From the NCBI GenBank assembly GCA_041658425.1, contig JBBAAF010000001.1, positions 26,793 through 90,792 of the forward strand: a stretch of 64,000 nt of DNA, in the 5' to 3' direction. Both the position numbers and the translations under genes were made by a program. This DNA comes from Bacteroidales bacterium (GTDB lineage: Bacteria > Bacteroidota > Bacteroidia > Bacteroidales > UBA12481). Numbering within the stretch: the stretch's first letter is position 1; every line of letters begins with the position of its first letter. Below, piece by piece: positions 23,131 through 49,387 of this stretch. A model generated the notes under the pieces. It did no database searches. It was not told the origin of the DNA and worked only from the letters and a program-made list of their open reading frames with translations.

Positions 23131-23510
23131 CTTTACTTATCTCCCAAATGATCGGTTTGAGTTACGATTTCTTATTCTGCACCAAGAAATTATTCATGCT
23201 GAGGAAGCTAGCACGATTTTAAGAACGAGCTTGTGATTATACCCGGAATGAAAGTAAAACTCCTGACAGTCTATCTGCAGGATGAGGACAATCAAAATGC
23301 CAGCAGGATTCTCCCGCTGGTGTATTATAAGCTATCCAAAATTCTGACCCCAAATCCATTCATCGCGAAGATCAGGGGCATTGCCAGTAGGAATCCTGTA
23401 ACTGGCGGACTGAAAAGGATATATCCCTTTCTTATGTAGAAGGCTAAAACCAGTAAGTGGGTAAGGTACAGTAACTTATTCACACGGATAGGGTTTATGC
23501 GTGATTTTTT

Positions 23511-23852: not shown

Positions 23853-23856
23853 TGTT

Positions 23857-24333: not shown

Positions 24334-24359
24334 TTTTTAATCATGGTTGGGTAATATAA

Positions 24360-25823: not shown

Positions 25824-25834
25824 GTCCTGTGGTT

Positions 25835-27267: not shown

Positions 27268-27271
27268 AGTT

Positions 27272-28999: not shown

Positions 29000-29010
29000 A
29001 GCGTTAGAAC

Positions 29011-30201: not shown

Positions 30202-30207
30202 GTCTTT

Positions 30208-32870: not shown

Positions 32871-32882
32871 ATCCGATTGAAA

Positions 32883-35189
32883 ATGAACAGGGACCGATCA
32901 TCGTTTCAGATTCATGTTCACGGGATGGTACAGGGCGTAGGGTTCCGGCCATTTGTCTACCGATTGGCACGGGAATTAAACCTGGATGGTTCCGTTGAGA
33001 ACCGAAATGACGGTGTCTGGATCAATTTATTCTGTACGCGGGAAGGACTGGATATTTTCATCAGTTTACTGAAACGACAGGCACCACCTCCATCAACGAT
33101 CCTGTCCGTTGAAGTTATTCACCAGGCAATGAATAATGCTCAGTCAGGCTTTCGGATACTGGCAAGTCAAAATGGCTCCGATGAAATTACCGGTATTTGT
33201 CCGGATATCGCTGTGTGCGAGAAATGTCTGGAAGACATGAAAAACCATCCGCGCCGGATAAGCTATCCTTTCGTGAACTGCACACATTGCGGGCCCCGGT
33301 TCAGTATTATCCGGGAGCTACCATGGGACCGGCCCAACACATCAATGTCAGGGTTCAGCATGTGTGACGGCTGCAGAGCTGAGTACACCGATATGCTCGA
33401 CCGTCGCTTTCATGCTCAACCGATCGCTTGTACGATATGTGGGCCGGTTTACTATCAGAAAGGCTTTCAACCGGGCGCTGAATTATGGGCGGATATGGTT
33501 GGACAGATCATTCAGGCTTTACTCACCGGCCGGATCGGAGCTATTCAGGGTATCGGAGGATACCACCTGGTTTGCGATGCCACAAATGCTTTGGCTGTGG
33601 CCGAACTTCGCAAAAGAAAGCACCGTGACGGTAAGCCTTTTGCGGTAATGTTCATGGGTATTGAGGAAATTCGACAATATTGTGAATGCTCGGAAGCAGA
33701 GGAAAAACTAATAACCTCATGGCAACGTCCCATTGTTATCCTGAAAGAGCATAAATGCTTAAATTCCCTGGTCAACAAGGGTTTAGGGAGCCTCGGGGTT
33801 ATGCTCCCGTATACTCCACTGCAACACCAGCTCATGACCGAAGGGAAATTCCAGGCATTAATCTGTACCAGTGGAAATCTTTCCGATGAACCCATCGTCA
33901 TTACACCGGAGGCAGCTGAAGATAAGTTAAAAGATATTGCTGACTTTTTTATACATAGCAACAGACCCATCATTAACCGGACAGATGATTCTGTTGCACG
34001 ATTAGCCGGAGAAAATACGATTCTTATCCGGAGATCCCGTAGCTATGTTCCCACGGCAATACAGATTAGTCTGTCTGTGGATGGTATTCTTGCTCTCGGC
34101 GCAGAACAGAAAAACACATTTTGCCTGGGGAAGAATCGTGAGGCCATTCTAAGTCAGCATATCGGGGATCTGAAAAACTTTGACACCTTTCAATTTATGG
34201 AGGAGTCCCTGGCCAGATTTAAGAAGATATACCGTTTCAATCCGACTCTGATAGTCACCGACCAACACCCCGATTATCTTTCAACGCAATTTGGCAATTC
34301 CCTCGGTATCCCGGTCATAGCAGTGCAGCACCATCACGCGCACATCGCCTCATGCATGGCGGAGCATCAATTGGATGAACCGGTGATCGGAGTTGCTTTT
34401 GACGGCACCGGACTTGGAACCGACCAAACCATCTGGGGCGGGGAGTTTCTGATCGCCACACTCGATCAATTCACCCGGTTTACCTGGCTGGACCCCGTGA
34501 AGGTCCCCGGCGGTGATCAGGCAGTAAGAGAACCCTGGAGAGTCGCGATAGCTTACCTTTATAAATGTTACGGGGAAAATATTCCATTTGAATCTTTCAC
34601 TGGACTTCAAGGTATACCTGAGATTCAGCGAAATCAAATCATCAGCCTATTAAAGTCAGACGTTCCTGTTCCAGTCTCCTCTGCTGCAGGCCGGCTCTTT
34701 GATGCAATCTCAACCCTGACCGGTTGCTGCATTGAGAACACCTTCGATGCCGAGGCACCCATAAGACTGGAGATGGTTGCTAATCAGCTGGAAACAGGTG
34801 AATATCCTTTTCAGCATGATCACACTATTTCCTTTACTTCTACTATAGAAGCCATCCGGGTCGATCTTGAAAATCATGTTCCCGTATCCGTGATTTCTGC
34901 CAGATTTCACAGAACCCTGGCAAGAGCCATCCTGGAAACCTGTCTCCAGGCAAGGGAACTGACCAGGCTTAAGAGTGTGGTTCTGTCGGGAGGAACTTTT
35001 CAAAATGCATTTCTCACCCGGATTACATGTTCAGCCTTATTAAAGAACAAATTTAACGTATATACCCACCGCGTAGTTCCACCCAATGATGGCGGAATCT
35101 CCCTGGGTCAATTGGTTGTTGCAGCAAAAAAACAGATTAAAAAAAATGTGTCTAAGCATCCCGGCCGAAGTTCTATCCACCAACAGTAA
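32883..35189 (+). CDS. hypF: Carbamoyltransferase HypF
   Basis: Acylphosphatase domain (HVHGMVQGVGFRPF), two Zn-finger CxxC pairs (CEKC...CTHCGPRF; CDGC...CTICGP), and YrdC and Kae1-like domains. The ATG is at 32883 (the track start is a TTG). Confidence 0.95.
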   Translation: MNRDRSSFQIHVHGMVQGVGFRPFVYRLARELNLDGSVENRNDGVWINLFCTREGLDIFISLLKRQAPPPSTILSVEVIHQAMNNAQSGFRILASQNGSDEITGICPDIAVCEKCLEDMKNHPRRISYPFVNCTHCGPRFSIIRELPWDRPNTSMSGFSMCDGCRAEYTDMLDRRFHAQPIACTICGPVYYQKGFQPGAELWADMVGQIIQALLTGRIGAIQGIGGYHLVCDATNALAVAELRKRKHRDGKPFAVMFMGIEEIRQYCECSEAEEKLITSWQRPIVILKEHKCLNSLVNKGLGSLGVMLPYTPLQHQLMTEGKFQALICTSGNLSDEPIVITPEAAEDKLKDIADFFIHSNRPIINRTDDSVARLAGENTILIRRSRSYVPTAIQISLSVDGILALGAEQKNTFCLGKNREAILSQHIGDLKNFDTFQFMEESLARFKKIYRFNPTLIVTDQHPDYLSTQFGNSLGIPVIAVQHHHAHIASCMAEHQLDEPVIGVAFDGTGLGTDQTIWGGEFLIATLDQFTRFTWLDPVKVPGGDQAVREPWRVAIAYLYKCYGENIPFESFTGLQGIPEIQRNQIISLLKSDVPVPVSSAAGRLFDAISTLTGCCIENTFDAEAPIRLEMVANQLETGEYPFQHDHTISFTSTIEAIRVDLENHVPVSVISARFHRTLARAILETCLQARELTRLKSVVLSGGTFQNAFLTRITCSALLKNKFNVYTHRVVPPNDGGISLGQLVVAAKKQIKKNVSKHPGRSSIHQQ

Positions 35190-35373
35190 TATGGCCATTG
35201 TGCAAATAGGTGGGCTAATGATCCAGGCGTCTCTCGATCTGGTTGAGGATATCCGCGTAGGCGATTATGTCCTGATCCATACCGGATTTATTATTCAGAA
35301 GATTTCAATGGAGGAGGCAGAGGAAACTAAAAGACTCATCCGTGAGATTGAAAACCTTAATGATGCTCCATGA
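35146..35373 (+). CDS. hypC: Hydrogenase assembly chaperone HypC/HupF
   Basis: The N-terminus MCLSIPAEV has the invariant Cys2. About 75 aa. It overlaps the hypF 3' end. Confidence 0.9.
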   Translation: MCLSIPAEVLSTNSNMAIVQIGGLMIQASLDLVEDIRVGDYVLIHTGFIIQKISMEEAEETKRLIREIENLNDAP

Positions 35374-36422
35374 ATATTGTTGAGGCTTTATTGTTTGCCA
35401 TCCGAAGGGAAGCTACCCAACCGGTCCGGTTGATGGAAGTTTGCGGAGGACATACTCATGCTATCAGGAAATTCGGAATACCAGGACTCCTTCCCGGTAC
35501 GGTCAGCTTACTGTCCGGGCCCGGTTGCCCGGTTTGTGTAACCCATACCGGATTCATCGATCAAGCCATTCATTTGGCCCGAAACTATCCGGTGATCATA
35601 ACCACTTTCGGCGATCTCATCAGGGTACCCGGATCGGATCAAAGCCTGGAAACCGCCCGAGCAAACGGAGCAGATATCCGACTTGTCCTTTCTCCGCTGC
35701 AAGCTTTAACCCTTGCTCAAACCGAGAAGAGTAAACAAGTGGTTTTTTTGGGCATCGGATTTGAAACAACCGCTCCCTCGGTGGCCGTCACAATAAAAAC
35801 CGCCCTTGAACGGGGAATCGGTAATTTTTCTGTTTTGAGTGCCCACAAGATAATGCCGCCGGCTATGGCCGCTTTGGTCAATCATCAGCCCAACCTCGAC
35901 GGTTTCATTTGCCCGGGACATGTAAGTACCATAACAGGCTCGGCTATATATGAATTTCTTGCACAAGACCATGGAATACCTTGTGTTATTTCCGGTTTTG
36001 AAGCTTCAGATATTCTGGAATCAATATTACTGTTGATCAGACAGATAAATAGTCATCAGCCTAAAGTTGAGATTCAGTACAGGCGGGCTGTGAAAATGGA
36101 AGGCAATTTGAAAGCCCTGGAAATCATGCATGAAGTATTCGTCCTTCGTGACGATTGGTGGCGTGGGTTGGGAATCATCCCGAAAAGTGGCCTCATTCCT
36201 GATGGCAAGTATGCCGGTTTCGATACCCTGCAGCGATTTAACCTGCCTGAATTTCCGGATACCGGCAATCGTGGATGCAGATGCGGCGATATCCTCCGTG
36301 GATTAATTACTCCTCCTGAGTGTACATTGTATGGGAAAACCTGTACCCCTGACTCACCGGCCGGTGCCTGCATGGTGTCGTCTGAGGGGACCTGCCAGGC
36401 TTTCTACCGCTATCAGAATTGA
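35370..36422 (+). CDS. hypD: Hydrogenase formation protein HypD
   Basis: MEVCGGHTH, GPGCPVCV, GFETTAP and PGHVS motifs. It overlaps hypC as ATGA. Confidence 0.95.
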   Translation: MNIVEALLFAIRREATQPVRLMEVCGGHTHAIRKFGIPGLLPGTVSLLSGPGCPVCVTHTGFIDQAIHLARNYPVIITTFGDLIRVPGSDQSLETARANGADIRLVLSPLQALTLAQTEKSKQVVFLGIGFETTAPSVAVTIKTALERGIGNFSVLSAHKIMPPAMAALVNHQPNLDGFICPGHVSTITGSAIYEFLAQDHGIPCVISGFEASDILESILLLIRQINSHQPKVEIQYRRAVKMEGNLKALEIMHEVFVLRDDWWRGLGIIPKSGLIPDGKYAGFDTLQRFNLPEFPDTGNRGCRCGDILRGLITPPECTLYGKTCTPDSPAGACMVSSEGTCQAFYRYQN

Positions 36423-36438
36423 AAATGAAAAGCTAACC

Positions 36439-37452
36439 ATGAAAGACAAAATACTATTAACGCATGGTAGTGGGGGTCGGATGACCCGTGAATTGATACG
36501 CGATCTCTTTCAGCCCTACCTGAACAATGAATATCTTGAAAAAGAATCCGACGCAGCAATACTTCAACCGGTAACAGGTAAGATTGCGGTATCCTGCGAT
36601 GCATTCGTAGTTCATCCTATCATCTTTGCCGGAGGAGATATCGGCAAACTCTCAATATGCGGTACTGCCAATGATCTGGCGGTTGCCGGTGCCAAACCCC
36701 ATTCAATAACAGCTTCCTTTATTCTGGAAGAAGGACTTGAAAAGTCCCTTTTGGAAAGAGTGGTATCGTCCATGGCCCGTGAAATAAAACAACTCGATAT
36801 TGCACTGATTGCCGCTGATACCAAAGTGGTTCCAAGTGGTCTATGCGACAAAATATATATTACCACTACCGGAATTGGTACCGTTATTCCTGATCTAGAG
36901 CAGGTCTCCAACGGGAAAGGGATTCAGGCTGGTGATCGGATTATCCTTAGTGGCACAATCGGCGATCATGGGGCAGCAATCTTTTGTGCCCGGTATCCGG
37001 AGCATATTCTGACGACAATCGAGAGTGATTGTGCTTGCGTATATCCATTGATTGAAATGATTTCAAGCTTCGGCACTGGCATTCGGTTCATGCGTGATCC
37101 CACACGGGGAGGATTAGCAACGGTTTTATGCGAAGTCACAGAAAAGAAAGCCTGGGGCATCACTATTAAGGAAAGCCTTATCCCGGTAAGGAATGAAGTT
37201 GCAGGATTATGCGACCTGGTTGGTCTGGATCCCCTTTACCTGGCAAATGAGGGTAAGTTCATAATGGTTGCCGCTGAATCGATTTCAAATGAAATACTAA
37301 CCGCTTTACGATCTCATCCGCTTGGAAAAAACGCTTGTGAAATTGGTGTGGTCACCCGGGAAAATCCGGGTCGGGTTATTTTGGAAACCCCGATCGGGGG
37401 CACGAGATTATTGACCATGCTTTCAGGGGATCCCTTGCCACGAATTTGTTGA
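36439..37452 (+). CDS. hypE: Hydrogenase expression/formation protein HypE
   Basis: THGSGG N-terminus, AIR-synthase-like fold, and C-terminal PRIC motif. The ATG at 36439 avoids overlap with hypD. Confidence 0.95.
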   Translation: MKDKILLTHGSGGRMTRELIRDLFQPYLNNEYLEKESDAAILQPVTGKIAVSCDAFVVHPIIFAGGDIGKLSICGTANDLAVAGAKPHSITASFILEEGLEKSLLERVVSSMAREIKQLDIALIAADTKVVPSGLCDKIYITTTGIGTVIPDLEQVSNGKGIQAGDRIILSGTIGDHGAAIFCARYPEHILTTIESDCACVYPLIEMISSFGTGIRFMRDPTRGGLATVLCEVTEKKAWGITIKESLIPVRNEVAGLCDLVGLDPLYLANEGKFIMVAAESISNEILTALRSHPLGKNACEIGVVTRENPGRVILETPIGGTRLLTMLSGDPLPRIC

Positions 37453-37460
37453 ACCTTACC

Positions 37461-37802
37461 ATGCATGAATTGGCTGTCATAGAAGGAATTATAGAAACGA
37501 TGACTGAGGTCGCCGCAGCCAATCGTCTATCCAGGATCTCACGGCTGGATCTGGTTATTGGCAAAATGCACCAGTTGGTACCCGATATGCTTGAGTTTTC
37601 GTTTGAGACTTGCACGCAGGGTACCGTGGCTGAAAAGTGTAAACTTGTGATCGACTGGAGGCCAGTTATCGTGACTTGCCGTGATTGCAGTAACCGGTCT
37701 GAGATCATCGACAGTATATTTATCTGTCCGCATTGCGGAAGCTTCCGTCTCAATACTGAATCTGGTAAAGAGCTATATATTAAATCAATAACAGGAGAAT
37801 AA
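37461..37802 (+). CDS. hypA: Hydrogenase nickel insertion protein HypA
   Basis: MHELAV N-terminus (the MHE Ni site). Zn site CRDC...CPHCGS. Confidence 0.93.
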   Translation: MHELAVIEGIIETMTEVAAANRLSRISRLDLVIGKMHQLVPDMLEFSFETCTQGTVAEKCKLVIDWRPVIVTCRDCSNRSEIIDSIFICPHCGSFRLNTESGKELYIKSITGE

Positions 37803-37803
37803 A

Positions 37804-38466
37804 ATGGATATAGTATTAATGAAGAATGTTCTGGACAGAAACCAGAATAAGGCAGACGAAAACCGCCTGAGATTATCAGAAAGAGGTATTCTTATGATCA
37901 ATATTATCAGTTCACCAGGAGCCGGAAAAACCAGCCTTCTTGAAAAAACCCTAGCTCACTTTTCGGGGATATTGAAAATTGCTGTCATTGAGGGTGACAT
38001 TGCTACCGACCGTGATGCCCGGAGACTACAACCTTATAATTCCCAAATCATTCAAATAAACACCGAAGGAGGATGCCACCTCGATTCCCACTCGATTGCC
38101 AAAGCATTTGAGCATTTGGATCTGGACAAACTTCAATTGATCATTGTGGAAAATGTTGGCAACCTGGTATGTCCCGCAGAATTTGATTTGGGTGAAAACC
38201 ATAAGATAGCCGTGATCAGCGTTCCGGAAGGTGATGACAAGCCGGTTAAGTATCCGCTGCTGTTCAGGGAATCCTCAGCTATTATTCTGAATAAGACAGA
38301 TCTGATCCCCTATACAAATTTCAGCCTTGAACAATTCAGAAATTACGTTAGGGAACTGAATGGCAGTATTCCTGTTATGGAAATTTCATGCACCACCGGC
38401 TCAGGATTGTCGGTTTGGTTTGACTGGATCCGGGCTCAAATAAAAGAGAAAGGCGTACCTGCATAG
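37804..38466 (+). CDS. hypB: Hydrogenase nickel incorporation GTPase HypB
   Basis: P-loop SSPGAGKTSLLE, ENVGNLVCPA and NKTDL motifs. Confidence 0.95.
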   Translation: MDIVLMKNVLDRNQNKADENRLRLSERGILMINIISSPGAGKTSLLEKTLAHFSGILKIAVIEGDIATDRDARRLQPYNSQIIQINTEGGCHLDSHSIAKAFEHLDLDKLQLIIVENVGNLVCPAEFDLGENHKIAVISVPEGDDKPVKYPLLFRESSAIILNKTDLIPYTNFSLEQFRNYVRELNGSIPVMEISCTTGSGLSVWFDWIRAQIKEKGVPA

Positions 38467-38501
38467 ATACGCCTGTTTCCTTTTCTGCAGTCTGCAGTCC
38501 G

Positions 38502-39881
<1,380 letters not shown>

Positions 39882-39957: not shown

Positions 39958-42900
39958 TTATTCAGGGTCAGCAGTTATCGCAGTTCCCCTTCCACCAAAT
40001 CCGGGCTTATAAATAACTCCGCGGTTCTGAGCCCCATCGATTTTGATGTGTAAAGGATCCTCAAACTGAATATGCCTGATATATTCATCCTCATAGACGC
40101 TTTCGAATCCCGAAAGGAAATCGAGATCATAGTAACCATCTTTCAGATAAGGATTAATAGTAAGATATCCAATCCGGAAGGAGGTAAGGTTCTGGAAGAA
40201 ATGGGTACCCTGGCTTGGGTCGATCCGGTAATCGGGAAGCCCGGATTCCACAATTACACGGGCAGCCGAAATCTGCGGCCATTTAACCGGGATCCCCAGC
40301 CAGGGATCACTTGAACCCCAGCGGCCAGGCCCTACCAATACATAATTACCGCCCTTGGTGATAAACTGATCATTCAACCTCTCTATCCGGCTGGTAATGG
40401 TATTGCTATCAGCAGCCCTGAAACATTCCGGTTTCACATAAACAAAGTCGCGAATGTTCCGGATAAGGCCGTTCCCAAGCGCTGAAACGGAATAAATGAT
40501 GGTATTCTCTTCAACTACTTCCTCGAGCCGGAAACTGAGTTCATCAGAATTTTCAACAACCGGCCGAATCTGAAGGAAATTGAATATTTTCGGTGTTCCC
40601 GGCGGCACATCGAGGTTGACTGCAAACTCCATTTCAATCGGATTGTTCATTTCCTTTTCACCGACTTTCATCAGGGTCATTAATATATCAGAAAGAGGAA
40701 AAGTATTGTGCTTCAGAATATTATTAAAGGTAATCACCCTCCTGCCCTTTTCGGTGAAATTGTCGCGGATGATATGGTTGTCCATGTCAAAGGTAGAAGC
40801 TACAAACCGTAAGGCTGAATCTTCTTCGGCATCGCGGATTTTCAGCTTCAAAATATTAACCCCGTCATCTGTGGAAGGATGGAAATGGTCGGCAAACAGA
40901 TCCAGCGCATAAAACTCGCGCTGCGTTTCCTTCAGGGCACTGTCGGCAGAGGATAGTTGCAATATTTTAGACGGATATTTCGGGGAGAATCGCAGTCCCG
41001 CACCTCCTTCAACAATCAGTTTACCCAATCCGAAAGCGATATTGGCAATGCCATCTTCCGGCCTTTCTAACCCGACCGGATAAAAATTAATCGACCGGAC
41101 CACGCCTGATATCGTTGGATAAAAGCGGTTTCCATATCGGTTCCCGCACACCTCCTGCAAAATTATAGCCATGCGCTCTGCATCAATCACATTTTGAGTG
41201 GCTGCCAGGTAAGTTTTTGAATTTTTGAAATATACTGAAGCATAGACTGACTTAATCGCATCGGAAAGCATATATACCATCTTCTGCTTATCTGATTCAA
41301 CCTTCGGCAGCATAAAAGTAGAATATATACCAGCAAATGGCTGATAATGACTATCCTCCAGCATGCTCGAAGACCTTATGGCAATAGGATTTTTTACCAC
41401 GCGGGCAAAAGCTTCCAGGTCTTTGTAAATCCGCACCGGAAGTGTAGCACCTACAAAACTTTGAAGAATCTGCTCATCGGTTAACCTCGAAGTAACCACT
41501 CTCCAGAGGTTATTCAGGTCCATAAACTCTTCAAAGACCTCGGTCGAAATAACCACTGTTCGCGGAATGGTGACCAATACCCCATCCCAATGGTTACCCA
41601 GATCATGATGCTTAATAAAGGAGTCAATAAAGGCAAGCCCTCTTGCCTTACCTCCCAGCGACCCTTCCCCGATTCTTGAAAACAGCATATACTCATCAAA
41701 CCGGGTCCGGTCAAATGTTGAAATGACTCCCCTGGCCTTCGATAAACGGTAGCTCGATATTATGTTGAAGATGTACTGCCGGCCGTCCTCCACACTTCCG
41801 AAATCCTCGAGTGTTTTATGTTTAAGATGACTTCCGATCTGAAAGAAAGCTCTGGCATTGAACCACTTAGAGAAATCATTATTATTAAAATGATATTTGA
41901 GCGAATGGGTCGGGATTTTTAAAATGATATCCTGCATCTCTTTCAGGTTCGAAGCCCTGCCGATCTCTTCCCCGGTTTCGGGTTCCCTGAAAATAAAATC
42001 ACCGAAATTCATGTATCTCACCATGAAATTCCTCAGTTCAATATCCAGCGTTTTGGAATATTTATGCAGAAAACTGGCGTTCAAATCGGTGGCGGCAGCT
42101 TGATTGCTTAATTCCGAAGATTGCAGCAGGAATGGCACATACGGATCAACCTCCCTTACCGTTTTGCAGAATTTCAGACCTGCTTCCTGGTCCTTCTTAC
42201 CTTTCCGCTTGTAAGAAATATCAGAAATGATTCCAAGAGTGCTATCCCTATACTTGTGGAAAAGATCCATGGCCGCTTCGTAATTGGTGGCGAGAAGAAT
42301 TTTCGGCCGGCCCCGCATCCTGAGCATCTTGCGATGTTCATTCAATCCTTCCAGCATGAAGGATTTAGATTGTTTGAACACAATCTTATAGATCGCAGGC
42401 AAAAAAGAGGAATAGTACCTGACCGAATCCTCCACCAGTAAAATGGTTTGGACCCCCACCTCATTAACGTCGTACACCAAGTTCATCCGGTCCTCAATCA
42501 GCTTGATGATAGCCAACAAAAGATCCGCATTACCCAGCCAGGAAAAAACATAATCGATGGCACTAAGATCTTCCTTCTCGAGCTTTATCGAGACCTCCCT
42601 GCTAAAATGAGTCAATACAACAATCGGAATATGAGGATATTCGGACTTTATCTTTTTTGATAACTCAAACGGGTCCATTTCGCCAACGCTCAACATCGAA
42701 ATAACCAGGTCGATGTGTTCCCGCTCCAGGTGATCAAAAGCTTTGCGGGCAGTATTGGCCTGAATAAAAACCGGCGGATACCTAAGGTTAAGCGCAACAT
42801 ATTCATTAAAAATCTGCTCATCGATCCGCCCGTCCTCCTCAAGCATGAAGAAGTCATAGTTACTGCAGATAATCAATACTTTATTTATCCGGCGCTGCAT

Positions 42901-42966
42901 AAGGAATTTAAATTCCGCTTCGCCGAAATCGGTATTTGGCCGGTTTAATTGGGTAAATTCTTGCAT
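39958..42966 (-). CDS. Large signalling protein of unknown function: pseudo-receiver, receiver (REC), central domain, and a PPDK_N-type PEP/pyruvate-binding ATP-grasp
   Basis: VLIICSNYDFFMLEEDGR is REC-like but lacks the acidic pair. ILLVEDS...GIISDI is a canonical-looking REC. GSLGGKARGLAFI is the PPDK_N/PpsA N-terminal signature. The C-terminus has GPGRWGSSDPWLGIPV and GTHFFQNLTS. No swivel-His GGxTxH motif is seen. Confidence 0.75.
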   Translation of the reverse strand: MQEFTQLNRPNTDFGEAEFKFLMQRRINKVLIICSNYDFFMLEEDGRIDEQIFNEYVALNLRYPPVFIQANTARKAFDHLEREHIDLVISMLSVGEMDPFELSKKIKSEYPHIPIVVLTHFSREVSIKLEKEDLSAIDYVFSWLGNADLLLAIIKLIEDRMNLVYDVNEVGVQTILLVEDSVRYYSSFLPAIYKIVFKQSKSFMLEGLNEHRKMLRMRGRPKILLATNYEAAMDLFHKYRDSTLGIISDISYKRKGKKDQEAGLKFCKTVREVDPYVPFLLQSSELSNQAAATDLNASFLHKYSKTLDIELRNFMVRYMNFGDFIFREPETGEEIGRASNLKEMQDIILKIPTHSLKYHFNNNDFSKWFNARAFFQIGSHLKHKTLEDFGSVEDGRQYIFNIISSYRLSKARGVISTFDRTRFDEYMLFSRIGEGSLGGKARGLAFIDSFIKHHDLGNHWDGVLVTIPRTVVISTEVFEEFMDLNNLWRVVTSRLTDEQILQSFVGATLPVRIYKDLEAFARVVKNPIAIRSSSMLEDSHYQPFAGIYSTFMLPKVESDKQKMVYMLSDAIKSVYASVYFKNSKTYLAATQNVIDAERMAIILQEVCGNRYGNRFYPTISGVVRSINFYPVGLERPEDGIANIAFGLGKLIVEGGAGLRFSPKYPSKILQLSSADSALKETQREFYALDLFADHFHPSTDDGVNILKLKIRDAEEDSALRFVASTFDMDNHIIRDNFTEKGRRVITFNNILKHNTFPLSDILMTLMKVGEKEMNNPIEMEFAVNLDVPPGTPKIFNFLQIRPVVENSDELSFRLEEVVEENTIIYSVSALGNGLIRNIRDFVYVKPECFRAADSNTITSRIERLNDQFITKGGNYVLVGPGRWGSSDPWLGIPVKWPQISAARVIVESGLPDYRIDPSQGTHFFQNLTSFRIGYLTINPYLKDGYYDLDFLSGFESVYEDEYIRHIQFEDPLHIKIDGAQNRGVIYKPGFGGRGTAITADPE

Positions 42967-42967
42967 A

Positions 42968-45900
42968 TTATTCAAATTCCTGACAATCCCGCTCATTGCT
43001 AATCCGGATTAGAGACTGTCTCTTTTTACCGTCCATGACGATATCCATATCGTTCTCAAATATAACATGCTTGAAATACCGCCCCTCCTCAATAACAGTC
43101 TGCTGCTGTATTAAATCGTACTGAATGAAATTCTTACCGCCTGTATGAATGGAAAAGTACCCCACATTCATGGAAGTTACGTTATGGAAAAAGTGGGAGC
43201 CAAGAGAGGCATCCAACGGAAAATCAAACAAATCGGTCTCAACAATTACCCTGGCGTTTGAAATTTGTGACCATTTAACCGGAATCCCGATAAATTTATC
43301 ACGCGACCCCCATCTTCCGGGACCAATCAGTACATATTCCTTCTTCAGCTTTCTCATTTCTATATTCATATGCTCGATTTCAGCAGCCATTTCCTCAGTC
43401 TTCATCTTGTCAAATTTCTGAGGATCAAGAAAGATCAAATCACGGATACATCTCAATCTGCCGTTTCCGAGGCTTTTTTCGGAATATAATATAGAATTCG
43501 AATGATCAACCTGGTCGATATCCACCGTAAAATCCTCATCTGCGCCAACCATGGGCTTAATCTGGAGGAGGTAAAATGATGCGCGATGCTGGCTGTCGGG
43601 CATTAGATCCACCGCATATTCAATTTCAACGGCCGTTCCAAGAGCTTCATGAACAACATCCAGAATAACCTCAACTGTTTTGGCAAGAGGCGTATATCCA
43701 AAATGAAGGATATCTGCAAAATTCAGCACACGGGGGCCAAACCCCTGCAAGCCAGGATCAAGCCGGTCATTATTAGCATTATATACCGAGGCAAGATGAT
43801 TAATGGTTCCATGCTTCTCTGCGACGGAGATATCGAGTTTAGCCAATCCTGCTTCTTCTCCGTCAAGGAGGTTCAATTCTCTTTTTTTGAGATCTGCAGC
43901 ATAGAAACAGACCTGCGAGGTTTTCAGCTGATCCTTGAGGGAAGAGATCTGCAAGGTGGGATACTTCGGTGAAAACCGCCATGCTTTCTCGCCCTCCATA
44001 ACATACCTGCCTAATCCGAGGGCTATCACGGCGCAACCATCATCGGGTTCCATATGAGCAACCGGATAGTAGTTATAGGACTGAGCCGTACCGCTAATGT
44101 GCGGATAGTAGTATTTTTCATACTCATTACCAACAAGTTCCTGGATAACCACTGCCATTTTCTCCTCTTCAACCCGGTAATTGACCGCTTCAAAATACAT
44201 CCTGGCCTCGGGTGAAAAAATGGAGGCATAAACCATTTTGATCGCATCCTGCAATTGATCGTACCTGACATTATAATCTGGATCAGAATTCGGCAGCACA
44301 TAAGTTTCGAAAATGCCCGCAAACGGATGAAGCAGGGAATCTTCAAAAATACTGGACGAGCGAATCGCGAGCGGCATGTTCAACAGTTTCAGAAATGTTT
44401 TGAGTTTCTTCTTTAGGTTGAACGATAAATCGCCGGCCAGGAACATTTCCCTGACTTTCATATAATCCTGTTCATCAAGGACCGGGCTGGTGAGGTTGTT
44501 CCGTTGCATGAATATTTCAAATTCATCGGTTCCGATGATCGCCGTGCGGGGTGTGCGGATATTGATGTCGGGTATAATATGAGTAAAATCAAGGTTATTG
44601 ATCAGGGTATTGATAAAGGCCAGGCCACGGCCCTTTCCTCCAAGTGATCCGGTACCCAGACTGACTATATTACGCCAGTCGAGGACGGCGGTTTCGTCAA
44701 AGTTGACCACCTTTCCCTTGTCTTTATCGATCCGGTAATTCTGAATCACATCGATGATATACTCACGGAGTTCCTTCGGGCTGCTAAAATCACCGGCCTT
44801 TATCGGGTTGATGATTTTGGCAAGCTGAATCTCACCCCTGGCCATCAGCCATAAAGAAAAATGATTTTTTAGAGCATGGTATAGAATCGATTCTTCAGGT
44901 ATCGTTCGCAAATGATTCTCAAAATCCTTCATCGACCGGGCCACAGCGATTTTCCGCCCCTGGTTATCACGGTAAACAAAATGTCCGAATCCCAGTGAGT
45001 AGGTGATAAAGGTTTTCAGATCCTGGAGCAATGTTTCAGAGTTCTTGTTCATGAAAGTTGCCTTGAGCTCAACAGCAGCCGAAGCACATTCAGCATCAGA
45101 GGATTGCAGGATCATAGGCAGATCGGGCCGGTGCGAATGAACATAACGGAGAAAGCTGATACCTGCGGTTTCATGGACTAATCCTCCCCGTCTGAATTTC
45201 ACGTCGGAAATTACGCAGGCCAGGTAATCCTGATATTTATTAAAGTAATTGATTGCCTCCTCATAGTTGGTGGCCAGGACAATCTTGGTACGGGCTCGCA
45301 TTCGCGACACCTTATCGAGTTCATTGGTATTGGCCTCGGCGATTAATTCCTGGGTTTGCTCAAAAACCAGTGTGTAGAGCATCGGAAGGTATCTGGAATA
45401 ATACCGGGGAGAATCCTCAACCAACAGGATCACCCGCACCAGTCCCACTTTGGTATCATTCTCCAGATTCACTTCGTCTTCCAGGAGTTTTACCATGGCG
45501 AAGAAAATCTTTGAATCCCCGTTCCATACAAACAACCGGTCGATCGCTGGCAGTATGGATTCCTGTTCATCAAAGAGGCCGATCTTCGAACTATTGTTGA
45601 GCAGCAAAAAGATTTTCATCTCGGGGTACCTTCTTCTGATCCGCTCAGCCAGCTGCAATGGGCTTCGTGTATCTACGCCCACCATCAGCACCACAAAATC
45701 GAACGACTTCTCTTTCAGCATCTCCAGTGCATCATCCGCGGAGGTGGCTCCGGTAATCCTTGGCAGGGACGAGAGACTCAGGTGGTAAACTTCGCCCATG
45801 GTCTGCTCGAAGAAACGGTCTTCATTTTCAAGGATAAAGGTGTCGTACAGAGTGGCAACCAGCAGAATTTCAGATACCTTAAACCTCATCAGATCATGGA

Positions 45901-46489
45901 AAATATTCTTGTCGGCCGTAAGTTTGCTGAGAAACTGCTGAAGCAGCAGCCGGCTATCCTTCATCGATTCCGTATAAACAATCTTCTTGTATTTGTAATC
46001 ATCCCTTTCACGGGGCGGTTTCACAGCAATCGTCTTCCCTAACAATCCATTCAGATATCCGGTGATCAATCCGGCTATATTGTTAATCAGATTTCGCTCT
46101 TCGTTCAGGAAGGGTCCTTCATCAGCTTCCGGCAATTGTTGCGTATAGAATACCTGTAATAACCCTCCTTTACCATCTGATGAAAAAAATTCCTGCTGCT
46201 GCAGCCATTCGGTCTGCTTGAACCGCAGACTCTGATACTCCTGATCGTCATATAGGATCCGTGCACAGGCTTTCTGCGGGTATTGCCATCCCCGCGGCAA
46301 TATAAGCGCGATCTGCCTGAGGGCTTCAGGCAGTGGCTTCCCCTCCGAAATGATAGTGGTCGTGCGGTTAATCGTCATGAGCTCCTTCACACGCTCCGTA
46401 TGCTCAGCGAGCAGCCGTTGCAGGTCGGGACGTTTGGTGCGGTTCTGTTCCATGGCAAAATTATTCTCTGCTATTGCCGAAGATAGCAA
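42968..46489 (-). CDS. Paralog of 39958-42966 with an extra N-terminal GAF-like sensor domain (GAF-like, pseudo-REC, REC, PPDK_N ATP-grasp)
   Basis: N-terminus LPRGWQYPQKACARILYDDQEY...GPFLNEERNL. ILLVATLYDTFILENEDR; ILLVEDS...CVISDV; GSLGGKGRGLAFI; GPGRWGSRDKFIGIPV; GSHFFHNVTS. An alternative start at 46453 is possible. Confidence 0.75.
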   Translation of the reverse strand: MLSSAIAENNFAMEQNRTKRPDLQRLLAEHTERVKELMTINRTTTIISEGKPLPEALRQIALILPRGWQYPQKACARILYDDQEYQSLRFKQTEWLQQQEFFSSDGKGGLLQVFYTQQLPEADEGPFLNEERNLINNIAGLITGYLNGLLGKTIAVKPPRERDDYKYKKIVYTESMKDSRLLLQQFLSKLTADKNIFHDLMRFKVSEILLVATLYDTFILENEDRFFEQTMGEVYHLSLSSLPRITGATSADDALEMLKEKSFDFVVLMVGVDTRSPLQLAERIRRRYPEMKIFLLLNNSSKIGLFDEQESILPAIDRLFVWNGDSKIFFAMVKLLEDEVNLENDTKVGLVRVILLVEDSPRYYSRYLPMLYTLVFEQTQELIAEANTNELDKVSRMRARTKIVLATNYEEAINYFNKYQDYLACVISDVKFRRGGLVHETAGISFLRYVHSHRPDLPMILQSSDAECASAAVELKATFMNKNSETLLQDLKTFITYSLGFGHFVYRDNQGRKIAVARSMKDFENHLRTIPEESILYHALKNHFSLWLMARGEIQLAKIINPIKAGDFSSPKELREYIIDVIQNYRIDKDKGKVVNFDETAVLDWRNIVSLGTGSLGGKGRGLAFINTLINNLDFTHIIPDINIRTPRTAIIGTDEFEIFMQRNNLTSPVLDEQDYMKVREMFLAGDLSFNLKKKLKTFLKLLNMPLAIRSSSIFEDSLLHPFAGIFETYVLPNSDPDYNVRYDQLQDAIKMVYASIFSPEARMYFEAVNYRVEEEKMAVVIQELVGNEYEKYYYPHISGTAQSYNYYPVAHMEPDDGCAVIALGLGRYVMEGEKAWRFSPKYPTLQISSLKDQLKTSQVCFYAADLKKRELNLLDGEEAGLAKLDISVAEKHGTINHLASVYNANNDRLDPGLQGFGPRVLNFADILHFGYTPLAKTVEVILDVVHEALGTAVEIEYAVDLMPDSQHRASFYLLQIKPMVGADEDFTVDIDQVDHSNSILYSEKSLGNGRLRCIRDLIFLDPQKFDKMKTEEMAAEIEHMNIEMRKLKKEYVLIGPGRWGSRDKFIGIPVKWSQISNARVIVETDLFDFPLDASLGSHFFHNVTSMNVGYFSIHTGGKNFIQYDLIQQQTVIEEGRYFKHVIFENDMDIVMDGKKRQSLIRISNERDCQEFE

Positions 46490-46522: not shown

Positions 46523-47539
46523 TTATTTCACTTCCCAGGTCGAACCTGAATACATCAAATCGTGTATGGTATGAATTTTACTCTTTTCGTGTATCGCTTC
46601 AATCTGCTCTTCCATCTTCACATCGTATGATTTCGTGGCTTCGCAGGCACGTATCACACCAAGTGCCACCGGATATTTCGGATAGTCCATGTTGGCCAGC
46701 AACAGGTGAATCCCGGCAAATTCGGTATGCGTATCATGCACCAGAAGATCTTTTTCGGATATCCCATTATCGCCCAATTGAACAACATGCAGCTCGTTGT
46801 CCTTCATCATCAGACCTTTATCCTGGTTCTTTCCGAAGATCATCGGTTCACCATGTTTCAGCATGATAATGCGGTCGTCCCTGTTATCGCGGTCGGTGAT
46901 GTCGCCAAAGGTTTGGTCGTTGTAAATGACGCAGTTCTGCAACACTTCAGTGATCGATGTTCCTTTGTGCTTTGCAGCTTCCAGCAGGATCTCGGTCGAG
47001 ATCTTAGGCATCGAATCGATGGTACGGGCAAAGAAAGTACCATTGGCTCCGATAGTGATTCCACCTGGCTTGAAAGGCTGTTCGATGGTTCCAAAGGGCG
47101 AAGTCTTGGTCACTGAGCCTTGTTTCGACGTTGGTGAATATTGCCCTTTGGTTAAGCCGTATATCCGGTTATTGAACAGGATCAGGTTAACATCGATATC
47201 CCTGCGCACCAGATGTATAAAATGGTTGCCCCCGATAGCGAGTCCGTCACCGTCGCCGGTAATGATCCAGACACTCAGGTTTGGATTGGATGTTTTCACC
47301 CCGCTGGCGACTGCCATTGCGCGGCCATGGATTCCATGAAACCCGTATGTATTAACATAATAGGGAAAACGGGATGAGCATCCGATCCCGGATACGAACA
47401 CAACATCTTCATGTTTGTATCCGATCTGGGAAAGGGCTTTAAGAACAGAACTAAGAATAGCGTGATCGCCGCAACCGGCACACCAGCGAACCATCTGGTT
47501 GCTTTTAAAATCTTCCGGTTTTAATTGTTGTATGTCCAT
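46523..47539 (-). CDS. korB: 2-oxoglutarate/2-oxoacid:ferredoxin oxidoreductase beta subunit
   Basis: WCAGCGDH and the TPP-binding GDGDGLAIGGNH motif. 338 aa. Confidence 0.9.
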   Translation of the reverse strand: MDIQQLKPEDFKSNQMVRWCAGCGDHAILSSVLKALSQIGYKHEDVVFVSGIGCSSRFPYYVNTYGFHGIHGRAMAVASGVKTSNPNLSVWIITGDGDGLAIGGNHFIHLVRRDIDVNLILFNNRIYGLTKGQYSPTSKQGSVTKTSPFGTIEQPFKPGGITIGANGTFFARTIDSMPKISTEILLEAAKHKGTSITEVLQNCVIYNDQTFGDITDRDNRDDRIIMLKHGEPMIFGKNQDKGLMMKDNELHVVQLGDNGISEKDLLVHDTHTEFAGIHLLLANMDYPKYPVALGVIRACEATKSYDVKMEEQIEAIHEKSKIHTIHDLMYSGSTWEVK

Positions 47540-47542
47540 TCT

Positions 47543-49387
47543 TTAGTCCTCCAGGTTTTTAAGTATCACCTCTTTAAGGTCTTTTACGGTAAACGGTAAT
47601 CCCATGATCTTATTGAACTTCCGGTACGGATACTCCGGATGCTGCATCCTCAGATAATTTGCAAATTGACCGAGGTTAATTTCGCAAACCAGGAGTTTCT
47701 TGAATCTTCCAAGAATCTCACGTGTATTGGTTGGCAGCGGATAAATATAGTTGAACTGGGCGAGTGCCACTTTGTGGCCTTCGCGGCGCACCTCGGTTAA
47801 AGCAGTGACCATGTGCCCATAGGTACCGCCCCACCCGATGATCAGCAGTTCGGCATCCTCATCTCCGACAATTTCCAGCGGTGGAATATCCTTAGCTACC
47901 TTTTGGACTTTATTCTCGCGAATATGACTCATCAGTTCATGATTCTCAGGAACATAAGAGACCGTTCCGGTAATATTCATCTTCTCGAGACTGCCCAACC
48001 GGTGCTCCATCCCATGGGTACCCGGAACAGCCCAGGTTCTTACCAAAGTTTCGGGATCCCTGGCATAAGGTTGCCAGTTCTGAGTATCCGGTGCCACTCT
48101 TGGTACTTTGATATCCGGAAAATCATTCAAATCGGGAATCCTCCACGGTTCTGATCCGTTGGCCAGGAATCCATCGGTAAGCAGGATAACCGGTGTCATG
48201 TGCTCTACAGCAATTTTACAGGCCATATAGGCATAATCGAAACAGTTGGAAGGTGTTGATGCTGCCATAACCACTACCGGGCTCTCCCCGTTGCGGCCAT
48301 ACAAAGCCTGCATCAGGTCGGATTGCTCGGTTTTGGTTGGCAGGCCCGTTGAAGGACCTCCGCGCTGAACATCAACAATAACCAGCGGAAGCTCAATCAT
48401 AACGGCCAGGCCAATGGCTTCGCCTTTAAGTGCCAGTCCCGGACCGGAAGTGGTGGTAACCGCTAATGACCCTGCAAAGCTCGCTCCGATAGCGGTACAG
48501 ATACCTGCGATTTCATCTTCTGCCTGGAATGTTTTCACTCTCAGATCTTTACGTGCAGCTAGTTCTTCCAGGATACCGGTGGCCGGGGTGATGGGATAGG
48601 AACCGCAGAATAGTTGCAGATCGGCCTTTTCGGCAGCAGCCATCATACCCCAGGCTACAGCAGCATTACCATTGATGCTCCGGTAGGTGCCTTTCTCTAT
48701 CTCAGCCGGCTTTACCTTAAAGTTAGCGGTAAAGGCCTCAATGGTTTCGGCATAATAATATCCATCGTACAACACCTTGATATTGGCCTCAACAAGAAGC
48801 GGTTTCTTGGCAAACTTCGTGTTGAAGAAGTTTACGGCATGCTCCAGAGGCCGGTCGTATAGCCAGCTGACAATACCGAGGGCAAACATGTTTTTACAAC
48901 GCAGAATCGATTTTTGATCCAGTCCGATGTCTTTCAGGCTCTCCCTGGTCAGATTGCTGATCGGGGCTGAAATCACCTGGATCCCTGTAACATCCTCTTC
49001 CAGAAAAGGATCCCCCTTGTATCCGGCTTTCTCGATATTTTTGGCATCAAACTGATCGGCATCATAGATTATGATCCCATCGGGTTTAACCCACCTGAAA
49101 TTTGCTTTCAGTGCTGCCGGGTTCATCGCAACCAGCACGTCACAATAATCACCCGGAGTATTGATCTGGGTATGACCAAAATGGACCTGGAAGCCGGAAA
49201 CTCCACCAACTGTTCCCTGTGGCGCCCTGATCTCTGCCGGGTAATCCGGGAAAGTGGAAACATCATTACCGTAAAGTGCTGACGTATCGGAGAAAAGAGT
49301 GCCGGTAAGTTGCATACCGTCGCCCGAATCACCCGAAAACCGTATGGCCACTTCTTCGATTTCGATGACTTTTGCCTGTTTACTCAT
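47543..49387 (-). CDS. korA: 2-oxoglutarate/2-oxoacid:ferredoxin oxidoreductase alpha subunit
   Basis: 614 aa, a fused gamma/alpha-type OFOR subunit. GNAAVAWG, YPITPA and TSGPGL motifs. Confidence 0.9.
   Translation of the reverse strand: MSKQAKVIEIEEVAIRFSGDSGDGMQLTGTLFSDTSALYGNDVSTFPDYPAEIRAPQGTVGGVSGFQVHFGHTQINTPGDYCDVLVAMNPAALKANFRWVKPDGIIIYDADQFDAKNIEKAGYKGDPFLEEDVTGIQVISAPISNLTRESLKDIGLDQKSILRCKNMFALGIVSWLYDRPLEHAVNFFNTKFAKKPLLVEANIKVLYDGYYYAETIEAFTANFKVKPAEIEKGTYRSINGNAAVAWGMMAAAEKADLQLFCGSYPITPATGILEELAARKDLRVKTFQAEDEIAGICTAIGASFAGSLAVTTTSGPGLALKGEAIGLAVMIELPLVIVDVQRGGPSTGLPTKTEQSDLMQALYGRNGESPVVVMAASTPSNCFDYAYMACKIAVEHMTPVILLTDGFLANGSEPWRIPDLNDFPDIKVPRVAPDTQNWQPYARDPETLVRTWAVPGTHGMEHRLGSLEKMNITGTVSYVPENHELMSHIRENKVQKVAKDIPPLEIVGDEDAELLIIGWGGTYGHMVTALTEVRREGHKVALAQFNYIYPLPTNTREILGRFKKLLVCEINLGQFANYLRMQHPEYPYRKFNKIMGLPFTVKDLKEVILKNLED

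Follow-up and report, generated by a model that had tools for sequence, protein, structure and literature searches.

The window, which is the whole 64,000-nucleotide stretch of a Bacteroidales MAG that we analysed, carries on its minus strand a pair of paralogous genes flanked by korAB and gdhA.

korA, 47543-49387, minus strand: 2-oxoacid:ferredoxin oxidoreductase subunit, upstream of gene 1
korB, 46523-47539, minus strand: 2-oxoacid:ferredoxin oxidoreductase subunit, upstream of gene 1
Gene 1 (product prot1), 42968..46453, minus strand: 1161 aa from ATG at 46453; sensor, pseudo-receiver, receiver, linker, ATP-grasp, C-terminal domain
Gene 2 (product prot2), 39958..42966, minus strand: 1002 aa from M11; pseudo-receiver, receiver, linker, ATP-grasp, C-terminal domain
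gdhA, 38502..39836, minus strand: NADP-type glutamate dehydrogenase (GDH), 444 aa
Terminator-like site, 38451..38474, minus strand: just past gdhA

The initial annotation described two adjacent giant paralogs with a common architecture. Both reading frames were present at those positions, the products shared 37% identity across 973 aa (E = 0), and all of the motifs it quoted occurred in the translations. The coordinates of korA and korB upstream and gdhA downstream also agreed (gdhA scored 828 bits to NF010633). The gene 1 reading frame reaches a TTG at 46489 (42968..46489, minus strand, 1173 aa), but the ATG at 46453 is probably the true start because a database twin with 100% identity to the product, P0271, is 1161 aa long. 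The 33-nt gap reported between korB and gene 1 holds when counted from the TTG and becomes 69 nt from the ATG. The gene 2 product also had a 100% identical twin of 1002 aa, P0001. Genes 1 and 2 are joined at GAA TAA T ATG, a 1-nt gap with gene 2 starting past the gene 1 stop codon, and gdhA lies 121 nt downstream of gene 2. A consensus-only terminator scan, in which the number of sites was not above that in shuffled sequence, placed the longest stem (10 pairs) just past gdhA and found no site in the korB/gene 1, gene 1/gene 2, or gene 2/gdhA gaps.

Domain architecture

Judged by sequence, both genes are paralogous members of a large uncharacterised family with a core consisting of a PPDK/PpsA-type ATP-grasp domain and a ~190-aa C-terminal domain. 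Our literature search found no paper on the family and no characterised member, as the initial annotation had supposed. The domains were placed as follows.

46025..46429, minus strand: prot1 aa 9-143, PAS/GAF-like sensor with motifs ERxKELxxIN…WQxP…EGPFLxEER (AF2 pLDDT 76.8)
45473..45877, minus strand: prot1 aa 193-327, pseudo-receiver (REC1), Pfam Response_reg 30.8 bits, no phospho-acceptor Asp by column analysis
45005..45439, minus strand: prot1 aa 339-483, divergent receiver (REC2), Response_reg E 0.01
44660..44992, minus strand: prot1 aa 488-598, helical DUF5752-like linker, Pfam DUF5752 23.5 bits (weak)
43526..44647, minus strand: prot1 aa 603-976, PPDK/PpsA-type ATP-grasp, Pfam PPDK_N E 2.2e-34, invariant columns
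42989..43525, minus strand: prot1 aa 977-1155, family-specific C-terminal domain, GPGRWGS at 1044 and GSHFF at 1085
42487..42888, minus strand: prot2 aa 27-160, pseudo-receiver (REC1), Pfam Response_reg 34.5 bits, receiver matches in PDB
42022..42453, minus strand: prot2 aa 172-315, divergent receiver (REC2), with E179, D180, acceptor D249 (codon 42220-42222), S283, and K302
41677..42009, minus strand: prot2 aa 320-430, DUF5752-like linker, Pfam DUF5752 E 2.4e-5 as an isolated segment
40534..41661, minus strand: prot2 aa 436-811, PPDK/PpsA-type ATP-grasp, Pfam PPDK_N E 2.5e-37
39997..40533, minus strand: prot2 aa 812-990, family-specific C-terminal domain, confident AF2 model (pLDDT 85.9, pTM 0.85)

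The GAF-like N-terminus noted earlier on the upstream copy modelled as a PAS/GAF-like fold. This sensor region (prot1 aa 9-143) had no Pfam match and only weak Foldseek matches in PDB (DosP PAS at E 8.5e-4, several GAF domains at TM 0.4-0.5), and the domain was present one to three times in longer homologs. The first receiver-like domain gave marginal Pfam Response_reg matches and is a pseudo-receiver, as previously proposed: the acceptor Asp was missing, with Met91 at that position in prot2 and Met in 27/44 sequences. The second was likewise confirmed as having phospho-acceptor residues, though its sequence is divergent. The residues corresponding to E179, D180, D249, S283, and K302 were kept in 84-98% of family members (column analysis), the landmarks in prot1 were LLVEDS at 343, acceptor Asp417 (codon 45203-45205), LQSS at 449, and FMNK at 467, and nearly all PDB matches of the REC2 profile were receiver domains. 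Response regulators with enzymatic outputs (CheB, PleD, RpfG, RssB) similarly place an N-terminal receiver, in which the acidic pocket, Asp, Ser/Thr, and Lys are conserved, before a catalytic output, and PleD-type arrangements have a tandem pseudo-receiver and receiver. Unlike theirs, the receiver of this family has diverged strongly and is ~25 residues longer between beta1 and beta3. We know of no ATP-grasp phosphotransferase described as a response-regulator output.

The PPDK_N-type nucleotide-binding domain was verified in both copies. Its motifs are GSLGGK at 602, RSSSIFED at 698, and LQIKP at 963 in prot1, and in prot2 the corresponding residues are G438, G439, and K440; R531, S532, S533, S534, E537, and D538; E780; and Q799 and R801. 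GGK, RSSSxxED, E780, and Q799 were invariant in 52 members 31-49% identical to gene 2, at least 90% of which also kept R801. These motifs aligned with their counterparts in rifampin phosphotransferase (RPH) and E. coli PpsA, and the predicted active site is intact in the family. Like PpsA and PPDK, the family has the homologous N-terminal ATP-grasp domain (PF01326, with GGK, RSSxxED, and E…Q-x-R kept) directly followed by a small conserved-His domain. Unlike them, it has N-terminal receiver/sensor modules, is linked to gdh and not to gluconeogenesis, and has neither the PEP-utilizers swivel nor the PEP/pyruvate TIM barrel, both undetected in the two proteins by Pfam, HMMER, hhalign, and Foldseek. 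A reading of the pair as true PEP synthases or pyruvate phosphate dikinases, which the PPDK_N match and the names in many database records ('phosphoenolpyruvate synthase', 'pyruvate, phosphate dikinase') would suggest, is hardly credible and for practical purposes refuted, in line with the initial annotation: Pfam found no PEP-utilizers or PEP-utilizers_C domain, NCBIfam scores were 52 and 46 bits vs equivalog cut-offs of 600-1000 (52 bits against an 883-bit cut-off), PDB alignments covered only the ATP-grasp, and the proteins terminate ~190 aa past it.

The top hits in PDB and NCBIfam searches, at E of about 1e-9 and 1e-13, were RPH (PDB 5fbs, 5hv1) and the prodigiosin ligases PigC/RedH, which are same-clade ATP-grasp enzymes re-purposed away from pyruvate. 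The alignment was limited to ~150 ATP-grasp residues, and RPH and PigC possess a canonical swivel His domain and a dedicated substrate-binding domain, neither of which is found in this family.

The C-terminal domain carries the signature GPGRWGS…G[ST]HFF, whose His is invariant, and GPGRWG[ST] and G[ST]HFF were kept in every subfamily, including the core2 type at 27% identity. Invariant residues in prot2 were R882, G884, G891, P893, E907, S918, G920, H922 (codon 40201-40203), F923, F924, and N926; the invariant His of prot1 is His1087 (codon 43193-43195). The domain had no match in Pfam, by sequence in PDB, or by fold in PDB with Foldseek. PDB fold and sequence searches showed no resemblance to HPt or DHp domains, and Foldseek, hhalign, and PDB sequence searches did not detect homology to phosphohistidine swivel domains. 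Because swivel homology was not detected, the His is a candidate phosphoryl carrier only through its invariance and by analogy.

Linkage to glutamate dehydrogenase

GDH was the sole widely conserved neighbour of the family and the top neighbour cluster in Bacteroidota (32/83 loci), followed by korB (16), korA (15), and murI (12). It was found within 10 kb in 31/80 Bacteroidota species loci and within 500 bp in 21/80, in taxa including Flavobacteriaceae, Prevotella, Phocaeicola, Paludibacter, and Rikenellaceae, and adjoined 4/4 long-form homologs. GDH-linked loci showed three different orientations, and at some loci (L037, L040) a pair of gdh genes flanked or alternated with family genes. Linkage to korAB was confined to a Bacteroidales subclade (15-16/83 loci), so of the kor/gdh linkage suggested initially, the gdh part is widely conserved and the korAB part is not. 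Two substrates of GDH would come from neighbouring genes, 2-oxoglutarate from korAB and NADPH from NfnAB-like genes.

A distant subfamily, 27-39% identical (27% for the core2 type) and with a GC range of 29-72%, had the cassette order gdh, core1, sensor-core2-nucleotidyltransferase (NTP_transf_2), then a convergent metallophosphoesterase (Metallophos). GDH was within two genes upstream in 54/59 of these loci and Metallophos was the next downstream gene in 39/66, while the phosphoesterase was missing from the window and found in just 2 Bacteroidota loci. The GDH of this subfamily is of a different type, ~33% identical to GdhA of the window, and most of its loci had no receiver domain. The gdh coupling is cross-phylum, and its conservation across families, orientations, and the distant subfamily strengthens the earlier idea that the pair acts at the carbon/nitrogen node. 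Tandem family pairs were separated by 1-nt gaps or overlapped by 4-7 nt, and natural core1-core2 fusions occurred.

Candidate functions of the pair

We tentatively favour, at somewhat below even confidence, a reading in which the pair are signal-gated, probably heteromeric phosphotransferases that control GDH, possibly by covalent modification. The Bacteroidota core would be under a pseudo-receiver and a phospho-accepting receiver, and that of gene 1 also under a PAS/GAF-like ligand sensor, with the two proteins probably acting as a hetero-oligomer. Their conserved role would be control of GDH, and so of the 2-oxoglutarate/glutamate node, and the likeliest route would be ATP-dependent modification of GDH or a GDH-bound factor. 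By analogy with dikinases, the ATP phosphoryl group may pass via the ATP-grasp site to the invariant C-terminal His and then onward, gated by histidine-kinase phosphorylation of the receiver and ligand binding at the sensor. Covalent-modification switches of central C/N enzymes (AceK for isocitrate dehydrogenase, GlnE/GlnD for glutamine synthetase and PII, and the PPDK regulatory protein) offer parallels of a modifier encoded beside its target at the 2-oxoglutarate node, and the distant cassette joins kinase-like, nucleotidyltransferase, and phosphoesterase genes around gdh. There is no sequence relationship to these systems and the likeness is functional only. Several observations weigh against the favoured reading: the C-terminal domain lacked recognisable swivel homology, about 60% of Bacteroidota loci had no nearby gdh, and the phosphoesterase of the distant cassette was rare in Bacteroidota.

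An unlikely alternative is a non-canonical sensor kinase or phosphorelay, in which the ATP-grasp autophosphorylates the C-terminal His and the phosphoryl group moves to a receiver Asp. The acceptor could be REC2 of the same protein, REC2 of its partner, or a NarL-type response regulator encoded alongside, and the phosphorylated regulator would control gdhA transcription. The invariant His and conserved acceptor Asp do occur in one protein, no cognate histidine kinase was conserved nearby among the neighbour clusters of the 83 loci, and at L003 and the JGI locus, where transcriptional control fits equally well, a gene for a NarL-type (REC+GerE) response regulator immediately separates the long-form gene from gdh. 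However, a DNA-binding partner was missing at most Bacteroidota loci, N-terminal receivers normally serve as inputs, and the C-terminal domain does not resemble HPt or DHp domains. Since the distant gdh cassette is mostly receiver-less, the core cannot originally have served in His-to-Asp transfer.

The gene neighbourhood itself is equally compatible with modification of GDH and with action on a GDH substrate or product. The pair could also be a small-molecule (di)kinase that phosphorylates a metabolite of the node (2-oxoglutarate, glutamate, or a cofactor) or makes a signalling compound, with gdh linkage reflecting a shared pathway instead of protein modification; we consider this improbable. 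To our knowledge, every characterised PPDK_N-type enzyme (PpsA, PPDK, GWD, rifampin phosphotransferase, PigC) acts on small molecules or glucans, three of these (rifampin phosphotransferase, PpsA, PigC) were the best matches, and the invariant polar residues R882, E907, S918, and N926 could form a binding site. Against this, the third, substrate-binding domain is missing, other pathway genes were not conserved alongside, and the regulatory load is very heavy, with two receivers and 1-3 sensors. That load, together with the nucleotidyltransferase and phosphoesterase added in the distant cassette, is typical of regulatory modification cycles, not pathway enzymes.

Inherited synteny without function, with the proteins being signalling enzymes for an unrelated target, is strongly disfavoured. 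About 60% of Bacteroidota loci, several Bacteroides species among them, had no gdh within 10 kb, but the linkage persists through rearrangement into at least three orientations, spans two paralog clades and the divergent subfamily with its different GDH type and wide GC range, and no other neighbour approached the frequency of GDH.

Because the family adjoins glutamate dehydrogenase genes across many bacteria, the pair probably represents an unrecognised nitrogen-assimilation switch.

The gene pair between korAB and gdhA

Translation of the window confirmed both ORFs of the initial annotation as real and correctly placed, with korA and korB directly upstream of the first (murI and bamA lie farther up) and gdhA 121 nt downstream of the second.

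42968-46489, minus strand: gene 1, upstream paralog; longest ORF, 1173 aa, starting at a TTG 33 nt after korB
45869-46453, minus strand: sensor module (ERxKELxxIN…WQxP…EGPFLxEER), also present in homologous locus L003 and in database homologs P0301-P0389 and P0135
39958-42966, minus strand: gene 2, downstream paralog; 1002 aa, with an identical protein in a 'Bacteroidales bacterium' MAG

Gene 1 has an ATG at 46453, 36 nt inside the TTG (46489), that would give 1161 aa, and a database twin of that length was 100% identical. The longest ORF of gene 2 encodes 1012 aa and would run 29 nt into gene 1; homologs favored the M11 start (1002 aa). The junction reads GAA TAA T ATG, leaving a gap of 1 nt, and the paired proteins shared 37% identity across 973 residues. 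A terminator scan, which is weak evidence, found no terminator-like site in the korB/gene 1, gene 1/gene 2, or gene 2/gdhA gaps and placed the hairpin with the longest stem right after gdhA. A sigma-70 promoter scan of the region returned fewer sites than shuffled sequence, with a consensus that is uninformative for Bacteroidota. GC content was unremarkable across the region (~45%).

Elsewhere in the window, positions 15489-31971 (minus strand) held two tandem copies of an HdrA-like/QmoC-like/HdrA-like set with the small and large subunits of a Mvh/Vhu-type [NiFe]-hydrogenase, copy A also having a maturation protease. Such a duplicated electron-bifurcation-type hydrogenase module is unusual for a Bacteroidales MAG. 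The hypF/D/E/A/B genes followed at 32877-38466 (hypF and adjacent ORFs; the family search covered hypF only). In the subset of window ORFs scanned, a single conventional histidine kinase gene turned up, a PhoR/WalK-like sensor kinase at 13731-15095 (minus strand), ~25 kb from the gene pair; nothing in these ORFs indicated that it is cognate to the pair.

A dikinase ATP-grasp with receivers and a family-specific C-terminus

Both proteins matched the PPDK_N ATP-grasp strongly (Pfam E 2e-34 for gene 1 and 2.5e-37 for gene 2). Beyond it Pfam found only a marginal Response_reg match to the first receiver-like domain (REC1) and a weak DUF5752 match to the linker. We scored conservation in an alignment of 52 family members that were 31-49% identical to gene 2, whose numbering is used here. 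Residues G438, G439, K440, R531, S532, S533, S534, E537, D538, E780, and Q799 were invariant and coincided exactly with the dikinase ATP-grasp motifs (GGK, RSSSxxED, E780, Q799), and R801 was conserved in at least 90% of members. The dikinase-type ATP site is intact, its motifs in register with E. coli PpsA and with rifampin phosphotransferase (RPH), the best PDB match (E 9e-10).

The ATP-grasp was the only part in common with PpsA, PPDK, RPH, and PigC. The NCBIfam PEP-synthase, PigC, and RedH models covered only ~150 ATP-grasp residues and scored 40-52 bits (cut-offs, 600-1350), and the best scores to the PEP-synthase equivalog (52.2 and 46.1 bits) were below its cut-off of 883. Both proteins stop ~190 aa past the ATP-grasp, and Pfam found no PEP-utilizers_C match, the PEP/pyruvate TIM barrel, in either. 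The proteins differ from PpsA and PPDK in swivel domain, TIM barrel, and equivalog score alike, which bears out the earlier view that they are not ordinary members of either enzyme class. We regard this exclusion, and the architecture described here, as nearly certain.

The C-terminal ~190 aa contained the invariant residues R882, G884, G891, P893, E907, S918, G920, H922, F923, F924, and N926 across the 52 members, and the domain was modeled confidently (pLDDT 85.9, pTM 0.85). Foldseek against the PDB gave no match (best E 0.009, to chitinases, with TM ≤ 0.29) and returned no PPDK, PpsA, or EI chain at its best TM of 0.29. The isolated C-terminus had no match in Pfam, even for PEP-utilizers at E ≤ 10, and a C-terminus-only profile recovered nothing from the PDB except marginal longin-domain matches, and so no swivel domain. 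The domain does resemble PpsA and RPH in secondary-structure order and in a 'DPW … IVE … G-T-H' pattern, and in HMMER the ATP-grasp alignment ran on for ~35 residues, into the beginning of the PpsA swivel. The swivel signature G-G-x-T/S-x-H (a PROSITE-type regex) was present in E. coli PpsA, PtsI, and PtsP; at its place the two proteins read SQGTHFF and SLGSHFF instead. hmmsearch against the same three E. coli proteins gave no alignment at the His, and hhalign of the domain with the swivel returned a probability of 0.9%. With Foldseek, hmmsearch, hhalign, and the PDB profile all negative, we rejected homology to a divergent PEP-utilizers swivel and retain the likeness as a putative functional analogy. 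The C-terminus is apparently a new accessory domain, and it carries an invariant His.

REC1 matched Response_reg marginally (30.8 and 34.5 bits in Pfam; E 6e-5 in the PDB). Its acceptor position was Met in 27/44 sequences and its Lys position read Trp-x-Gly, so that it is a pseudo-receiver without the acceptor Asp and conserved Lys. The second, divergent receiver (REC2) has a complete pocket, conserved in 84-98% of sequences: the acidic pair E179 (43/44) and D180 (37/44) after beta1, the acceptor D249 (39/44) after beta3, S283 (42/48) after beta4, and K302 (44/47) after beta5, in a register consistent with CheY and RssB alignments. The Pfam receiver profile matched REC2 of gene 1 at no better than E 0.01 and missed that of gene 2, because the stretch from beta1 to beta3 is ~25 residues longer in this domain. 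A REC2 family profile found 48 weak PDB matches (E 0.0085-1), all receivers save one (TrmB, 3qph). The proteins qualify as response-regulator-type proteins through the REC2 residues, not through profile score. Two-component histidine kinase domains (HisKA/DHp, HATPase_c) were absent from both in Pfam and NCBIfam, and judged by domain content neither protein is a histidine kinase.

The N-terminus of gene 1 had no Pfam match. Its model, of moderate confidence (pLDDT 76.8, pTM 0.59), consisted of helices, a four-stranded sheet, and then a long helix, and was PAS/GAF-like in weak Foldseek matches to the DosP PAS domain (E 8.5e-4) and to several GAF domains including that of NifA (E 0.004-0.1, TM 0.4-0.5). 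This sensor module was repeated one to three times in tandem in longer homologs (1276-1582 aa), and in fused proteins it also separated one core from the other. The module seems to serve this kinase-like core as a dedicated input domain.

Family distribution and linkage to gdh

More than 8000 database matches had the gene 2 architecture. The C-terminal domain alone gave 1712 matches at E ≤ 1e-3 among 50%-identity cluster representatives, and scanning 185,579 species-representative genomes confirmed at least 599 loci. Source names for the family were 'phosphoenolpyruvate synthase', 'pyruvate, phosphate dikinase', 'PEP/pyruvate-binding domain-containing protein', and 'CheY-like'. Misannotation as PEP synthase or PPDK is thus routine, and at a minimum the first of these names should go from metabolic reconstructions. 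A literature search found no paper that treats PPDK_N combined with a response regulator, DUF5752, or Bacteroides gdhA together with PEP synthase, in agreement with the initial annotation, which knew of no characterized member. We distinguished four architectures, in which the core is the ATP-grasp plus the C-terminal domain.

Architectures of the family
Core only: 573 aa (P0181)
PseudoREC-REC-linker-core: ~1000 aa
One to three sensors with pseudoREC-REC-linker-core: 1150-1580 aa
Distant type: core-only protein, then a sensor-core2-nucleotidyltransferase protein, as separate proteins or as one fusion

The fused proteins kept all catalytic motifs and the His in both halves. Apparent 'mid-size' architectures of 705-735 aa were rejected as truncated gene calls starting within REC2; of the shorter forms, only the 573-aa P0181 seems genuine. 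A homolog search seeded from locus L056 returned Phocaeicola sequences only (~89% identical), which were abundant in gut metagenomes and brought no new annotation.

From the species-representative genomes we took 80 loci, labeled Bacteroidota with few exceptions (another or no phylum name), and clustered every neighboring ORF. GDH was by far the commonest neighbor (32/83 loci), followed by korB (16), korA (15), and murI (12 of 83), all three confined to close Bacteroidales relatives; the remaining clusters reflected local synteny. A gdh gene lay within 10 kb in 31/80 loci and within 500 bp in 21/80, placed downstream on the same strand in 11, upstream on the same strand in five, and divergently in five. 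Linked taxa included Lutibacter, Gillisia, Polaribacter, Paludibacter, Prevotella, Phocaeicola, and Rikenellaceae, and several Bacteroides loci had no gdh within 10 kb. In Lutibacter and Polaribacter the family gene was flanked by two different gdh genes. Genes alternated as gdh-family-gdhA-family at L037 (3-8175) and ran gdh-family-gdhA at L040 (8495-14517, Lutibacter oceani), with gdh of two types in each. BT_1971 and BT_1972 of B. thetaiotaomicron, taken to lie next to gdhA, were considered as candidate orthologs, and BT_1971 was rejected because it is a catalase.

A gdh gene adjoined each of the four examined long-form homologs of gene 1. Two of these loci, L003 and a JGI locus, had a NarL/FixJ-type response regulator (REC+GerE; 14621-15280 in L003) between the long-form gene and gdh, and NfnAB-like genes (DHODB_Fe-S_bind; Fer4_20/Pyr_redox_2) directly upstream. 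Another redox/NADPH context occurred at L089 (8001-19870), where a NuoE/NuoF-like pair, a 1225-aa GltD-like/molybdopterin fusion, and rubrerythrin lay between gene-1-like and gene-2-like genes, with gdh divergent upstream.

We sought the distant double-core type in metagenomes and collected 80 loci (L090-L169, 29-72% GC). In these diverse metagenomes the cassette was remarkably regular, with the order gdh (~428 aa), core1 (~585 aa), sensor-core2-NTP_transf_2 (~1060 aa), and then a convergent calcineurin-like phosphoesterase (~286 aa), as at L169 (6498-13726) and L101 (6504-13698). Its GDH was only ~33% identical to GdhA of the window, and the start of the sensor-core2-NTP_transf_2 gene overlapped the core1 stop by 4-7 nt. 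GDH was no more than two genes upstream in 54/59 loci having upstream sequence, and the phosphoesterase was the next gene downstream in 39/66. A REC-REC-core protein replaced core1 in L160, L162, and L168. An orthologous phosphoesterase preceded the gene 2 ortholog in two genome-collection loci (L011 and L031) and was absent from the window. The deep theme is therefore two divergent cores, coupled in translation, beside a GDH gene, and the korAB-gene 1-gene 2-gdhA arrangement is its receiver-decorated Bacteroidales version. The conserved partner of the family across phyla is gdh, not korAB: the gdh half of the linkage first proposed for the pair stands, and the korAB half holds for close Bacteroidales relatives only.

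A possible regulatory role at the glutamate node

A functional tie of the family to GDH and the glutamate node is probable. The neighbors fit a module for reductive amination, in which korAB would supply 2-oxoglutarate and NfnAB-like genes would supply NADPH. The phosphoesterase and Pol-beta-type nucleotidyltransferase around gdh suggest a modification/demodification cycle, and resemble the known covalent-modification cycles of AceK and GlnE/GlnD more than a metabolic pathway. Gene neighborhood makes direct covalent modification of GDH by the family possible, if somewhat doubtful. The proteins of genes 1 and 2 would form a hetero-oligomer whose ATP-dependent phosphoryl transfer is gated both by phosphorylation of the receiver and by a bound ligand; transfer would run via His922 (gene 2) and His1087 (gene 1), and its target may be GDH or something bound to GDH. 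We offer only tentatively the joint reading of a so far unrecognized covalent-modification switch for GDH with this family as its catalytic part: a hetero-oligomeric ATP-grasp 'GDH kinase' with a new type of phospho-His carrier domain, opposed by a metallophosphoesterase, coupled to a nucleotidyltransferase in some phyla, and receiving receiver and PAS/GAF-like metabolite-sensor inputs.

A phosphorelay, with His-to-Asp transfer by the family, stays alive as an alternative given the NarL-type regulators in two loci. However, most of the distant gdh cassettes are without receivers, which argues against a His-to-Asp relay as the ancestral function and lowers this alternative. Action of the core on a small-molecule substrate is a further, less likely alternative. 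Membership of the pair in a known anti-phage defence system was rejected, PADLOC models having given no match.

Overall, the analysis supports the cautious interpretation first given to the gene pair. What is new is the joining of a dikinase ATP-grasp to a response regulator, both of known kinds, and a predicted new regulatory role; the family points to a new use of this ATP-grasp, to which an apparently new accessory domain has been joined.

Bacteroidota, among them Phocaeicola and Prevotella, genera that dominate the human gut and the rumen, assimilate ammonium mainly through GDH, and how its activity is switched has been a question since the 1980s-90s. Yamamoto et al. (1987) reportedly found GDH of B. 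fragilis to be reversibly inactivated in vivo, and Baggio & Morrison (1996) are reported to have found that GdhA activity in B. thetaiotaomicron needs trans-acting gene(s) near gdhA; we treat both as leads, not as evidence. If true, the 'GDH kinase' reading would supply a molecular basis for the inactivation and would account for the trans-acting gene(s). With its conserved cross-phylum coupling to gdh, the family is a specific candidate, open to experiment, for a new regulatory enzyme where carbon and nitrogen metabolism meet.
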